Origin: Escherichia coli
GTDB taxonomy: Bacteria > Pseudomonadota > Gammaproteobacteria > Enterobacterales > Enterobacteriaceae
DNA length: 64,000 nucleotides
Strand: one strand, 5' to 3'
Assembly: GCF_030013595.1 (NCBI RefSeq)
Contig: NZ_CP122768.1
Positions within the stretch are counted from its first letter, which is position 1. The number at the start of each line of letters is the position of its first letter. Positions 11,090-44,388 of the stretch are shown one piece after another. The notes under the pieces were generated by a model, which did not search any database, was not told the DNA's origin, and worked only from the letters and a program-made list of their open reading frames with translations. A program made the position numbers and the translations under genes.

Positions 11090-11172
11090 AAACGCCTTAT
11101 CCGGCCTACAAATTCTACCAAATTCAATATATTGCAGAAATCATGTAGGCCTGATAAGCGTAGCGCATCAGG
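11090..11172. repeat. REP elements (BIME-like); the first REP is split by the IS insertion
   Basis: GCCGGATGCGGC (9640-9652) on the left flank and CGCCTTATCCGGCCTAC (11093-11109) on the right rejoin into a consensus-length REP; a second REP GTAGGCCTGATAAGCGTAGCGCATCAGGC lies at about 11143-11171. Confidence 0.6.
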
Positions 11173-29773: not shown

Positions 29774-29947
29774 CGCTAAATAATAGAGCAACCTTTAATA
29801 ATCTTCTGCTGAATAAAGATTGTCTCATATATTAATTTTATGAGATTTTTTTAGGATTATATCAAGGAGAAGAAACGAACTTATTAAGCTAGAATAGCTG
29901 CGGGTGCTTGAGACTGTTTGTCTCAGGTATTCACCGAAAGGCAGACA

Positions 29948-30012
29948 GAGAAAAGCCCCACCTGACTATAAATCAAAGTGAGGCTACCCTATGCCTGAAC
30001 ACCATAAGGTTA
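29948..30012 (-). ncRNA. sokA: Candidate Sok-type antisense RNA of the hokA locus (approximate ends)
   Basis: Minus strand opposite the mokA start and leader carries a TTGATT -35-like element and a short hairpin plus U-tract; placement is by analogy with hok/sok. Confidence 0.35.
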
Positions 30013-30203
30013 GCCTCTTACTCGTTGGAAATCAACACAGGAGGCTGGGAATGCCGCAGAAATATAGATTACTTTCTTTAATAGTGATTTGTTGCACGCT
30101 TTTATTTTTCACCTGGATGATAAGAGATTCACTGTGTGAATTGCATATTAAACAGGGGAGTTATGAGCTGGCGGCATTTTTAGCCTGCAATTTGAAAGAG
30201 TAA
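29991..30203 (+). CDS. mokA: Mok-type overlapping reading frame, in-frame N-terminal extension of hokA
   Basis: 70-aa ORF MPEHHKVSLLLVGNQHRRLGMPQKY... whose last 50 codons are hokA. Confidence 0.5.
   Translation: MPEHHKVSLLLVGNQHRRLGMPQKYRLLSLIVICCTLLFFTWMIRDSLCELHIKQGSYELAAFLACNLKE
30051..30203 (+). CDS. hokA: Hok-family type I toxin (small membrane peptide)
   Basis: 50-aa ORF MPQKYRLLSLIVICCTLLFFTWMIRDSLCELHIKQGSYELAAFLACNLKE; single transmembrane helix. Confidence 0.8.
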   Translation: MPQKYRLLSLIVICCTLLFFTWMIRDSLCELHIKQGSYELAAFLACNLKE

Positions 30204-30335: not shown

Positions 30336-30367
30336 AAAAAAATCCCCGCCAAATGGCAGGGATCTTA
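30336..30367 (-). terminator. Rho-independent terminator of cspA
   Basis: Minus-strand hairpin ATCCCTGCC...GGCGGGGAT followed by TTTTTTT, just after the cspA stop. Confidence 0.6.
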
Positions 30368-30390
30368 GATTCTGTGCTTTTAAGCAGAGA

Positions 30391-30603
30391 TTACAGGCTG
30401 GTTACGTTACCAGCTGCCGGGCCTTTAGCGCCGCTTTCGATGGTGAAGGACACTTTCTGACCTTCGTCCAGAGATTTGTAACCATCGTTCTGGATAGCAG
30501 AGAAGTGTACGAACACGTCTTTAGAGCCATCGTCAGGAGTGATGAAGCCGAAGCCTTTGTCAGCGTTGAACCATTTTACGATACCAGTCATTTTACCGGA
30601 CAT
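30391..30603 (-). CDS. cspA: Major cold-shock protein CspA
   Basis: 70-aa [41 protein letters not shown]... Confidence 0.95.
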
Positions 30604-30762
30604 AGTGTATTACCTTTAATAATTAAGTGTGCCTTTCGGCGATATGGCGTGCTTTACAGATTTTGAAGCGTTAAAGGAATGTGCACTACGAGGGGTATCA
30701 ACGATAACTCTTGAAGGGACTTGCCTTACTACACTGCTTTAATGGTCTGTACGTCAAACCGT
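30604..30762 (-). promoter_or_regulatory. cspA long 5' untranslated leader (cold-box region)
   Basis: About 159 nt between the inferred start ACGGTTTGACGTACAGACC and the ATG; long-leader architecture of cspA is established knowledge. Confidence 0.65.
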
Positions 30763-30800
30763 TGATGTGCATTAAGCCACGCATTGGCGGGTGATGCAAC
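30763..30800 (-). promoter_or_regulatory. cspA sigma-70 promoter
   Basis: Minus-strand TTGCAT (-35) and CTTAAT (-10) with 17-bp spacing, AT-rich upstream. Confidence 0.6.
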
Positions 30801-40176: not shown

Positions 40177-41868
40177 ATGAGATACATCAAATCGATTACA
40201 CAGCAGAAGCTGAGCTTTTTGCTTGCAATCTATATTGGCCTTTTTATGAATGGCGCGGTTTTTTACCGCCGCTTCGGCAGCTATGCGCACGATTTTACCG
40301 TCTGGAAAGGCATTTCTGCTGTTGTTGAACTGGCTGCCACCGTACTGGTAACCTTCTTTTTACTGCGTCTTCTTTCGCTGTTTGGCCGCCGTAGCTGGCG
40401 TATTCTGGCGTCGCTGGTGGTGCTCTTTTCCGCAGGTGCCAGCTATTACATGACCTTCCTTAATGTGGTCATTGGTTATGGCATCATCGCTTCCGTCATG
40501 ACCACCGATATCGACCTGTCAAAAGAAGTTGTTGGTCTGAACTTTATTCTCTGGTTAATCGCCGTTAGCGCATTGCCTCTTATCCTTATCTGGAATAACC
40601 GCTGTCGCTACTCCTTGCTCCGACAACTGCGAACCCCAGGGCAGCGTATTCGCAGCCTGGCGGTCGTCGTACTGGCGGGTATTATGGTTTGGGCACCGAT
40701 TCGTTTGCTGGATATCCAGCAGAAGAAAGTGGAGAGGGCGACCGGTGTTGATTTGCCCAGCTATGGCGGCGTCGTAGCGAACTCTTATCTGCCATCAAAC
40801 TGGCTTTCGGCATTGGGGCTGTATGCCTGGGCGCGGGTCGATGAATCTTCCGATAATAATTCATTGCTTAATCCGGCGAAGAAATTCACTTATCAGGCAC
40901 CGCAAAACGTTGATGACACTTATGTCGTGTTTATCATCGGTGAAACCACGCGTTGGGACCATATGGGTATTTTCGGCTATGAGCGTAATACCACGCCGAA
41001 ACTGGCCCAGGAGAAAAATCTGGCGGCGTTCCGTGGTTACTCCTGTGATACCGCAACCAAACTCTCACTGCGTTGCATGTTTGTACGCCAGGGGGGCGCG
41101 GAAGATAATCCGCAGCGCACATTAAAAGAACAGAACATTTTCGCGGTTCTGAAGCAGTTAGGATTCAGTTCTGACCTCTACGCTATGCAGAGCGAAATGT
41201 GGTTCTACAGCAACACGATGGCGGACAACATTGCTTATCGTGAGCAGATTGGTGCGGAGCCACGTAATCGTGGCAAGCCGGTAGATGATATGTTGCTGGT
41301 AGACGAAATGCAGCAATCGCTGGGGCGCAACCCGGATGGTAAGCATCTGATCATTCTGCATACCAAAGGTTCGCATTTTAACTACACCCAGCGTTACCCG
41401 CGCAGCTTCGCGCAGTGGAAGCCGGAATGTATTGGTGTTGATAGCGGCTGTACCAAAGCGCAGATGATCAACTCCTATGACAACTCGGTGACCTATGTGG
41501 ATCACTTTATCTCCAGCGTGATTGATCAGGTTCGCGATAAGAAAGCGATTGTGTTCTACGCAGCTGACCACGGTGAGTCAATTAATGAACGCGAGCACCT
41601 GCACGGCACGCCGCGTGAACTGGCACCGCCGGAGCAGTTCCGCGTGCCGATGATGGTCTGGATGTCAGATAAATATCTGGAAAATCCGGCCAATGCGCAG
41701 GCATTTGCGCAGCTGAAAAAAGAAGCCGACATGAAAGTGCCACGCCGTCATGTAGAGCTGTACGACACCATCATGGGTTGTCTTGGCTATACTTCACCGG
41801 ATGGTGGAATTAACGAAAACAACAACTGGTGCCACATCCCGCAGGCAAGAGAGGCGGCGGCTAACTAA
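40177..41868 (+). CDS. eptB: Kdo2-lipid A phosphoethanolamine transferase
   Basis: ORF 40144..41868 trimmed to [26 protein letters not shown]... (563 aa). Confidence 0.9.
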
Positions 41869-41917
41869 GAGGCCTGCTGACTTTCTCGCCGATCAAAAGG
41901 CATTTTGCTATTAAGGG

Positions 41918-41950
41918 ATTGACGAGGGCGTATCTGCGCAGTAAGATGCG
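41918..41950 (+). promoter_or_regulatory. proK promoter
   Basis: TTGACG (-35) and TAAGAT (-10) with about 17-bp spacing, roughly 10 bp upstream of the tRNA 5' end. Confidence 0.5.
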
Positions 41951-41959
41951 CCCCGCATT

Positions 41960-42036
<77 letters not shown>

Positions 42037-42042
42037 AATTCG

Positions 42043-42072
42043 AAATGCCTGCTCAGCGAGCAGGCTTTTTTG
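42043..42072 (+). terminator. Rho-independent terminator of proK
   Basis: GCCTGCTC-AGCG-AGCAGGC hairpin followed by TTTTTT. Confidence 0.65.
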
Positions 42073-42124
42073 CATTTGTAGCTCATGAGGATGAGAACCT
42101 CCGGGGGCAGGGAGGTTCGACTCG

Positions 42125-42232
42125 ACGTAGGCCTGATAAGACGCGCCAGCGTCGCATCAGGCAACGGCACCGCACTTATTGTTGGATGCGGCGTGAACAC
42201 CTTATTCGACCTACACACCACACATTTCCCTG
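42125..42232. repeat. REP elements (BIME-like) downstream of proK
   Basis: GTAGGCCTGATAAGACGCGCCAGCGTCGCATCAGGC plus a degenerate second REP (GGATGCGGCGTGAACACCTTATTCGACCTAC). Confidence 0.55.
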
Positions 42233-42744
42233 CCAAATTTTCGCCCCATATCTCACTATCCATTAACGGATTTGTGACAGAAACCATTGTCTTTTTTTAT
42301 ATTTGCTTAAATCTTTTTTTGCGTTACTTATGGCTGGCGCTGGCATTTTCCGCTGTGCGTTTTAGCGTTCATGGTATTAATCGCTCAGATATCCACCTTT
42401 TCCTCAGATTTTTTTCACTAAATGCATAAAACTTAATCACCAATTGTTGCTAAATATTAAGCTGATTGTTCTGGTCATGTTGGAGTAGCACAAATTTCTC
42501 TGCTGCAAATAGCTGTTTGAAGTTTTTTTAATCTTTGTTTGTGGATTCTCACCGTTGGTGTAAATCCCGGTTGGCTGTATTGACGTTTTCACATTCTGTT
42601 GACAGATTGTAGGTCACGAGGGGCATTTTATGGAGGATCCGCACTGTTACACTGATGTTAATTAGTACGGCATCCCCACCTCATAACGTTGACCCGACCG
42701 GGCAAAAAACAAAAAAGGTCAGGCAGCGACAACCCACTGCAAAG

Positions 42745-42772
42745 GGTTAAAACAACAAACATCACAATTGGA
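42745..42772 (+). promoter_or_regulatory. CA-rich element in the dppA leader (candidate GcvB sRNA pairing site)
   Basis: AAAACAACAAACATCACAA just upstream of the dppA ribosome-binding site; GcvB control of dppA is established knowledge, the exact pairing is not verified. Confidence 0.45.
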
Positions 42773-42780
42773 GCAGAATA

Positions 42781-44388
42781 ATGCGTATTTCCTTGAAAAA
42801 GTCAGGGATGCTGAAGCTTGGTCTCAGCCTGGTGGCTATGACCGTCGCAGCAAGTGTTCAGGCTAAAACTCTGGTTTATTGCTCAGAAGGATCTCCGGAA
42901 GGGTTTAACCCGCAGTTGTTTACCTCCGGTACTACCTATGACGCCTCTTCCGTGCCGCTTTATAACCGCCTGGTTGAATTTAAAATCGGCACCACCGAAG
43001 TGATCCCGGGCCTCGCTGAAAAGTGGGAAGTCAGCGAAGACGGTAAAACCTATACCTTCCATCTGCGTAAAGGTGTGAAGTGGCACGACAACAAAGAATT
43101 CAAACCGACGCGCGAACTGAACGCCGATGACGTGGTGTTCTCGTTCGATCGTCAGAAAAACGCGCAAAACCCGTACCATAAAGTTTCTGGCGGTAGCTAC
43201 GAATACTTTGAAGGCATGGGCTTGCCGGAGCTGATCAGCGAAGTGAAAAAGGTGGACGACAACACCGTTCAGTTTGTGCTGACTCGACCGGAAGCGCCGT
43301 TCCTCGCTGACCTGGCAATGGACTTCGCCTCTATTCTGTCAAAAGAATATGCTGACGCGATGATGAAAGCCGGTACACCGGAAAAACTGGACCTCAACCC
43401 AATCGGCACCGGTCCGTTCCAGTTACAGCAGTACCAAAAAGATTCCCGTATCCGCTACAAAGCGTTTGATGGCTACTGGGGCACCAAACCGCAGATCGAT
43501 ACGCTGGTTTTCTCTATTACCCCTGATGCTTCCGTGCGTTACGCGAAATTGCAGAAGAATGAATGCCAGGTGATGCCGTACCCGAACCCGGCAGATATCG
43601 CTCGCATGAAGCAGGATAAATCCATCAATCTGATGGAAATGCCGGGGCTTAACGTCGGCTATCTTTCATATAACGTGCAGAAAAAACCACTTGATGACGT
43701 GAAAGTTCGCCAGGCTCTGACCTACGCGGTGAACAAAGACGCTATCATCAAAGCGGTTTATCAGGGCGCGGGCGTGGCAGCGAAAAACCTGATCCCGCCA
43801 ACCATGTGGGGCTATAACGACGACGTTCAGGACTACACCTACGATCCCGAAAAAGCGAAAGCCTTGCTGAAAGAAGCGGGCCTGGAAAAAGGCTTCTCCA
43901 TCGACCTGTGGGCAATGCCGGTACAACGTCCGTATAACCCGAATGCTCGACGCATGGCAGAGATGATTCAGGCAGACTGGGCGAAAGTGGGCGTGCAGGC
44001 CAAAATTGTCACCTACGAATGGGGTGAGTATCTCAAGCGTGCGAAAGATGGCGAGCATCAGACGGTAATGATGGGCTGGACTGGCGACAACGGGGATCCG
44101 GATAACTTCTTCGCCACCCTGTTCAGCTGCGCCGCCTCTGAACAAGGCTCCAACTACTCAAAATGGTGCTACAAACCGTTTGAAGATCTGATTCAACCGG
44201 CGCGTGCTACCGACGACCATAACAAACGCGTTGAACTGTACAAGCAAGCGCAGGTGGTGATGCACGATCAGGCTCCGGCACTGATCATCGCTCACTCCAC
44301 CGTGTTTGAACCGGTACGCAAAGAAGTTAAAGGCTATGTGGTTGATCCATTAGGCAAACATCACTTCGAAAACGTCTCTATCGAATAA
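42781..44388 (+). CDS. dppA: Dipeptide ABC transporter periplasmic binding protein
   Basis: 535-aa ORF MRISLKKSGMLKLGLSLVAMTVAASVQA... Confidence 0.95.
   Translation: MRISLKKSGMLKLGLSLVAMTVAASVQAKTLVYCSEGSPEGFNPQLFTSGTTYDASSVPLYNRLVEFKIGTTEVIPGLAEKWEVSEDGKTYTFHLRKGVKWHDNKEFKPTRELNADDVVFSFDRQKNAQNPYHKVSGGSYEYFEGMGLPELISEVKKVDDNTVQFVLTRPEAPFLADLAMDFASILSKEYADAMMKAGTPEKLDLNPIGTGPFQLQQYQKDSRIRYKAFDGYWGTKPQIDTLVFSITPDASVRYAKLQKNECQVMPYPNPADIARMKQDKSINLMEMPGLNVGYLSYNVQKKPLDDVKVRQALTYAVNKDAIIKAVYQGAGVAAKNLIPPTMWGYNDDVQDYTYDPEKAKALLKEAGLEKGFSIDLWAMPVQRPYNPNARRMAEMIQADWAKVGVQAKIVTYEWGEYLKRAKDGEHQTVMMGWTGDNGDPDNFFATLFSCAASEQGSNYSKWCYKPFEDLIQPARATDDHNKRVELYKQAQVVMHDQAPALIIAHSTVFEPVRKEVKGYVVDPLGKHHFENVSIE

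Follow-up and report, generated by a model that had tools for sequence, protein, structure and literature searches.

The GC-rich hairpin that follows the tRNA gene proK in the stretch of Escherichia coli DNA analysed here (64,000 nucleotides in all, referred to as the window) is, as judged by sequence alignment, the 5' head of a repeat unit of the RtT family (Rfam RF00391), cut at position 42125 against the first of two REP sequences, REP1. REP1 and its partner, REP2, form an ordinary inverted REP pair, and it is very probable that a truncated RtT head and such a pair, placed end to end, jointly explain the structure. RtT is a tRNA-linked tandem repeat that was first described 3' of tyrT (RtT RNA, rttR; Bosl and Kersten, 1991, as cited in PMC3318445). 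The family and its link to tRNA genes are already known, as is the kind of element encountered here, and the proK-dppA spacer of the window is an ordinary, polymorphic and non-coding one; a search of the full-text literature for RtT at proK specifically returned nothing. An earlier, sequence-only reading of this DNA had proposed a non-coding repeat structure downstream of the proK terminator, a view that was borne out and is now refined by the identity of the hairpin as a truncated RtT head.

The truncated head, the REP pair and their setting

The region corresponds to the eptB-proK-dppA interval of E. coli, with eptB ending at 41868 and dppA starting at 42781 (Table 1). A 951-bp query from this spacer matched 5425 of the 5426 complete E. 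coli genomes, with 80% or more of its length covered in 4765 of the 5426 at 95-99% identity, and tRNA-Pro, eptB and dppA were found annotated under the matches. The promoter-like site 5' of proK was recognized by consensus match, and its placement just ahead of the tRNA fits that of a proK promoter. Within 41850-42800, the stem at 42047-42065 with its run of TTTTTT was the sole terminator-like site detected by scanning, and this intrinsic terminator sits between the proK tRNA and the RtT head.

Table 1. Features of the proK-dppA spacer in the window, with the basis on which each was assigned.
Feature	Position	Strand	Basis
proK promoter-like site (TTGACG, 17-nt spacer, TAAGAT)	41919-41947	+	consensus scan, 9/12 matches
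proK, tRNA-Pro(CGG)	41960-42036	+	ARAGORN; Rfam tRNA, 60.7 bits; tRNA-Pro in orthologous RefSeq records
Single copy of 108-bp segment, T-loop (AATCC) through terminator to GGTTCGACTCGA	42018-42125	+	present twice in L001
proK intrinsic terminator (8-bp stem, 3-nt loop, TTTTTT)	42047-42071	+	terminator scan; folding energy -16.2 kcal/mol
Truncated RtT-unit head: GAGGAT-GA-GAACCTCC, loop, GGAGGTTCGA, CTCGA	42087-42125	+	alignment to annotated RtT sRNA
Head hairpin, GAACCTCC / GGAGGTTC, 8 bp, 8-nt loop	42095-42118	+	inverted-repeat search, folding
REP1 (GCCTGATGCGACGCTGGCGCGTCTTATCAGGCCTACG)	42126-42162	-	37/37 identical to published REP query
REP pair as unit (BIME-like), Rfam naRNA4	42130-42211	-	65.3 bits vs gathering 59.5
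Linker between REPs (AACGGCACCGCACTTAT)	42163-42179	.	linker comparison across strains
REP2, degenerate	42180-42214	+	29/35 identical to published REP TGCCGGATGCGGCGTAAACGCCTTATCCGGCCTAC

The hairpin had been described as a GC stem of 8-9 bp; eight of these pairs stood, while the ninth did not, as it would set G opposite G. Its arms (42095-42102 and 42111-42118) constitute a perfect inverted repeat in which five of the eight pairs are G-C, the only match of its kind within the 64-kb window (none was expected by chance). The structure begins 23 nt past the T-run of the terminator and folds with an energy of -17.6 kcal/mol; its z-scores are -2.5 (+ strand) and -3.5 (- strand). A further complementarity of 8 nt exists between the loop region GGCAGGGA (42106-42113) and TCCCTGCC (42227-42234), which bracket the REP pair, and the minimum-energy fold computed for 42037-42240 includes this pairing. 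It was set aside as probably due to chance, being short, and since TCCCTGCC is retained in locus L003, where the final repeat unit is complete and REP1 is lacking.

The assignment to RtT follows from the sequence surrounding the stem. The head is identical to that of the annotated RtT sRNA in the orthologous loci L001 and L003 (alignment A1). Its first part, GAGGAT-GA-GAACCTCC, is the antisense of the T-arm of tRNA-Pro, which lies 62 nt upstream; complementarity to tRNA positions 42008-42024 extends over 15 of the 17 bases. Its second part, GGAGGTTCGA, is a sense copy of the 5' half of the same T-arm, matching at 10 of 10 positions. The head motif that the window shares with the RtT/tyrT-type repeat, GGATGAGAA-N-GGTTCGAYTCGA at 47-67 nt past the 3' end of a tRNA, occurs here as GGATGAGAACCTCCGGGGGCAGGGAGGTTCGACTCGA at 42089-42125, 52 nt past proK, and this spacing is equal in at least 48 Pro-linked heads. 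What remains of a full RtT unit is only its first ~39 nt; the structured body and the pseudo-tRNA 3' end (..ATCC..CCA) are missing, and the head runs straight into REP1. The fragment consequently scored 16.5 bits (E = 4.6) on the Rfam RtT model against a gathering score of 45, which rules out full Rfam membership for it, and because it falls below this threshold, the RtT assignment rests on the alignment to full units; the full unit at proK in K-12 scored 101.3 bits on RF00391.

The two REP units in opposite orientation that had been proposed next to the hairpin were confirmed both by consensus search and by covariance model. REP1 shows no mismatch to the REP consensus, an agreement not expected by chance, and its hairpin is predicted to be stable (-21.9 kcal/mol, z = -6.5). 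REP2 carries six mismatches in 35 positions and forms a weak hairpin (-8.8 kcal/mol, z = -1.6), with a less decayed form of it present in E. albertii. REP1 presumably resembles the Z2 type and REP2 the Y type. The naRNA4 model (RF02564) describes a REP-linker-REP unit, and its gathering score is passed by the pair on the - strand (Table 1), with 40.8 bits being recorded on the + strand. As is usual for REPs, the pair is extragenic, lying between proK and dppA, and multi-copy, the 951-nt query having matched E. coli genomes at 12 places in the median, with short matches, for example to query positions 280-313, accounting for the additional ones. The interval 42095-42232, originally given in full as repeat, holds as such through 42214, whereas its last 18 bases (42215-42232) belong to no repeat.

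The arrangement is thus like that of REP/BIME elements of E. coli in having a REP identical to the published sequence (the query was that given in the IS621 bridge-RNA paper, PMC11208160), a decayed REP in inverted orientation and a short linker; it is unlike them in comprising a single pair rather than a long cluster, with one partner bearing six substitutions. Likewise, sequence and structure of the pair reach the family threshold of naRNA4/REP325 (PMC4550694), but REP325 consists of a transcribed, six-fold cluster within the yjdMN operon, whereas the window holds a single pair, which matches the model on the - strand; the nucleoid role proposed for naRNA4 has since been questioned (10.64898/2026.03.23.713779). 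Two versions of the linker were observed to segregate among the window and the four loci compared with it (L001, L011, L048, and L076): AACGGCACCGCACTTAT is found in the window, in E. albertii (L011) and in the GTDB representative of E. coli (L048), and AATGTGCC(G/A)GCC in K-12 and E. whittamii. From the sequences, this distribution suggests that exchange or conversion has taken place between REP pairs.

REP1 also carries a natural target of the insertion sequence IS621, ATCAGGCCTAC, at 42127-42137 on the - strand (PMC11208160). In E. coli 2013C-3513 (L005, 1712-3004), IS621, an IS110-family element with a bridge-RNA recombinase, is inserted exactly at the REP1 target, the layout being GTAG, the IS, and then GCCTGAT. 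A second copy of ATCAGGCCTAC is present in the window at 11145 (- strand), adjoining a match to Rfam ES036 at 11110-11152. Other matches above Rfam thresholds in the window were a cspA thermoregulator at 30336-30763 (- strand), a sok antitoxin RNA at 29902-30053 (+ strand) and two rdlD antitoxin RNAs at 50128-50193 and 50611-50676 (- strand).

Copy number of RtT units and the origin of the window allele

A complete unit at proK starts within the T-loop of the tRNA (AATCC...) and consists, in order, of the last 19 nt of the tRNA, the terminator, the head (GAGGAT-GA-GAACCTCC, loop, GGAGGTTCGACTCGA), a structured, G+C-rich body of ~45 nt, and the tRNA 3' end once more. The locus resembles the RtT/tyrT-type repeat in the location of the unit boundary within the T-loop, in its position in the 3' flank of a tRNA gene, and in its tandem organization with variable copy number. 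It differs in the letters of the arms, which are those of tRNA-Pro in the window and in Pro-type units (CCTCC/GGAGG) and those of tRNA-Tyr in the tyrT RtT (CTTC/AAGG), and in that each Pro-type unit contains an intrinsic terminator, unlike the tyrT type.

The polymorphism behind the hairpin was revealed by comparison with the orthologous region of other E. coli, as the sequence-only reading had recommended. In the K-12-like locus L001, the spacer is 168 bp longer than in the window, and the extra DNA is annotated in RefSeq as 'RtT sRNA'. The three-way alignment A1 places a gap of 168 columns in the window, corresponding to exactly one missing unit relative to L001, while two full units are present at proK in L003 and L006. 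Across the 5426 complete E. coli genomes, the RtT unit body was found in 2668, at one to four places in each, and the window has none; about half of E. coli are, like the window, without it.

In L001 one copy of a perfect 108-bp direct repeat (period 168) lies on each side of the unit, and therefore one unequal exchange or one replication slip gives the window allele. The window, K-12 and E. albertii agree in that the last head of the array ends after GGTTCGACTCGA and is fused directly to REP1; E. albertii has one full unit followed by this same junction of truncated head and REP1, and E. whittamii has two full units. Among the matches listed, full units 3' of tRNA-Pro were also found in Citrobacter, Enterobacter, Siccibacter, Franconibacter, and others. 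These observations are best explained by two steps: an old event would have fused REP1 to a truncated head, the junction being common to E. albertii, and one full 168-bp unit would later have been lost by recombination or slippage between the 108-bp direct repeats. Because E. albertii possesses the junction of truncated head and REP and the outgroups carry full units, the zero-unit allele is probably a derived deletion, by parsimony over few outgroups. Copy number clearly changes repeatedly, with the direction of deletion drawn from these few outgroups, and the direct repeats would be the driving force behind both gain and loss of units. The head itself is near-unchanged since the split from E. 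albertii, which could reflect either gene conversion among units or some constraint.

In the window allele, the truncated head is most likely a vestige without a function of its own. Were rare transcripts to read through the proK terminator, the hairpins of the head and of REP1 would fold, and by analogy with REPs such as REP325, for which partial termination and stabilisation of mRNA have been reported (10.64898/2026.03.23.713779), they could hinder 3' exonucleases and promote termination ahead of the dppA control region.

Rival readings and the overlapping reading frames

Two other accounts of the hairpin deserve consideration. It might be an independent functional RNA or DNA structure serving proK, such as a back-up terminator, a processing site or a protein-binding stem, with its likeness to RtT being secondary. 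The perfect 8-bp stem, its stability on both strands, its closeness to the terminator T-run and its identity in E. albertii are in keeping with such a role. Yet the reading as a terminator was ruled out, as no T-run follows the stem on either strand (GACTCGACG comes next) and the terminator scan of 41850-42800 was silent at this site. Moreover, every full RtT unit at proK has these same 39 nt as its head, and the head recurs, with the RtT body behind it, at over 40 tRNA-Pro loci, such that an independent structure is improbable. The tRNA T-loop is a classical crossover region of integrases, and the T-arm-like pieces might be viewed as an attL/attR-type scar, that is, a partial duplication of the tRNA left by integrase-mediated insertion and excision at proK. 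The 10/10 sense copy of the T-arm in GGAGGTTCGA and the unit boundaries within the T-loop would agree with this. Against it, neither an integrase nor an island was seen at proK in any of the alleles examined, the pieces recur as strictly periodic tandem units of 168 bp with a conserved structured body, and the T-arm is also copied in antisense within the head, a feature foreign to att scars; an integration scar is hence highly improbable. The truncated RtT head remains the preferred reading.

A third account holds that a genuine small protein, akin to the 'protamine-like' tpr of the tyrT repeat, is encoded by either ORF 42085..42429 or ORF 41919..42266, which overlap the repeats. It is scarcely credible, in line with the earlier judgement that these listed ORFs are almost certainly spurious. 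ORF 42085..42429 begins two codons ahead of the ATG at 42091, which is positionally homologous to the start of tpr in GGATGAGAA, and in E. coli, E. albertii, and E. whittamii the frame of the ORF runs over 42217-42429, a T-rich portion, for 70 codons without interruption to a common stop; in the IS621-bearing strain, PGAP has called a hypothetical protein of 166 aa (WP_000469071.1) in this frame. Nevertheless, neither the length nor the C-terminus of the product is preserved from one allele to another: the ORF encodes 114 aa in the window, and the same start leads to 59, 115, 171, 54, 57, and 91 aa in other alleles. The frame from the GGATGAGAA ATG varies in both phase and length across alleles and genera, with head loops of 14, 15, and 16 nt in Pro-type units shifting it. 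Over 42217-42429, 17 codons differ non-synonymously from E. albertii and four synonymously, and because of this ratio the frame looks non-coding. The conservation that would have spoken for translation was thus not observed.

The family searches agree with this. ORFs 41919..42266, which passes through the tRNA gene on the same strand, 42085..42429, and 42027..42287 (- strand) gave no match at curated Pfam or NCBIfam thresholds, the only one listed being DUF7460 for ORF 42085..42429 at a sub-threshold level (E 0.085, 13.4 bits vs a cut-off of 27), and no RefSeq gene is annotated over the ORFs in a near-identical strain. Taken with the variation in frame and length and the pattern of substitutions, this led to the rejection of a coding reading for all three. 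Nor is the model for such a protein itself conserved: among the matches listed, 66 of 95 Tyr-type heads reach a stop after five codons. The tpr ORF of the tyrT RtT unit in K-12 (L004, 1116-1900) was not found to be conserved outside E. coli (L009-L124), and most genera read GACTAAGG in the head, giving that stop. The stretch 42217-42429 is probably DNA of the dppA upstream control region; a promoter-like site (GTGACA, 18-nt spacer, TATATT) was noted at 42274-42303.

Matching of RtT heads to their tRNA genes

The design of the family was surveyed by a scan of one genome per species for exact GGATGAGAA heads, which yielded at least 120 stretches; the survey of tRNA types, with tRNAs identified by ARAGORN, is a sample of these. 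At least 76 heads were of a Tyr type (CTTC..AAGG) and located directly after tRNA-Tyr, and at least 48 were of a Pro type (CCTCC..GAGG) and located directly after tRNA-Pro (41 CGG and 7 TGG), with no head behind the 'wrong' tRNA among the matches listed. The tyrT RtT units of K-12 follow the same design as the Pro-type units with the letters of tRNA-Tyr. RtT-like tandem units were also observed outside the Enterobacterales, in Neptuniibacter (L064, L065, and L079), Amphritea (L056), and an uncultured bacterium (L075). Those of Neptuniibacter follow tRNA-Lys(TTT) and have arms that match its T-arm; those of Amphritea, where the stretch fetched is without a tRNA, finish in the same Lys-type 3' end; and the uncultured bacterium, which is G+C-rich, shows a further variant of this matching. 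The bodies of these units are recognizably related (GGCCC[GA]AAGGGC, GTAATCC). RtT-family RNAs have previously been reported to adjoin Asn and Lys tRNA genes in Pasteurellaceae (PMC4986893), and RtT differences have been noted between Erwinia strains (PMC7542023).

With 77 distinct full RtT units, the head hairpin was paired in 507 of 611 cells, shifted controls giving 28-57%. For the outer helix, which joins the 5' arm to the pseudo-tRNA 3' end, the figure was 669 of 770 cells, and shifted controls over both helices gave 28-65%. The two-sided changes in these helices follow tRNA type, and with both arms being copies of the tRNA and few lineages being independent, the pairing may arise by construction and not by selection. 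Antisense and sense copies of the T-arm were found at tRNA-Tyr, tRNA-Pro(CGG), tRNA-Pro(TGG), and tRNA-Lys, in both Enterobacterales and Oceanospirillales. They form the basis for a proposal, to which only a small likelihood is attached, that RtT units go beyond passive duplication, that the arms of RtT are re-tailored to the tRNA they follow and that the truncated head could pair with read-through pre-tRNA-Pro, affecting its processing. If so, the adjacent tRNA gene might serve as the template for the units; alternatively, the units might work through base pairing with the 3' half of the tRNA or through mimicry of it.

For E. coli, the findings identify the proK-dppA spacer as a repeat locus of variable copy number, ranging from zero to at least two full RtT units, with up to four bodies per genome, and knowledge of this variation helps in annotation and typing and in the avoidance of mis-assembly. 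The stretch is sometimes made into hypothetical proteins by gene callers, which its identity as a repeat explains. REP1 in the window represents an unoccupied natural target of IS621, and this bears on where the element can land. As for the RtT family, the window illustrates the matching of arms to tRNA only as a fragment; heads that mirror the T-arm of their own tRNA across several tRNA families might merit a dedicated study.
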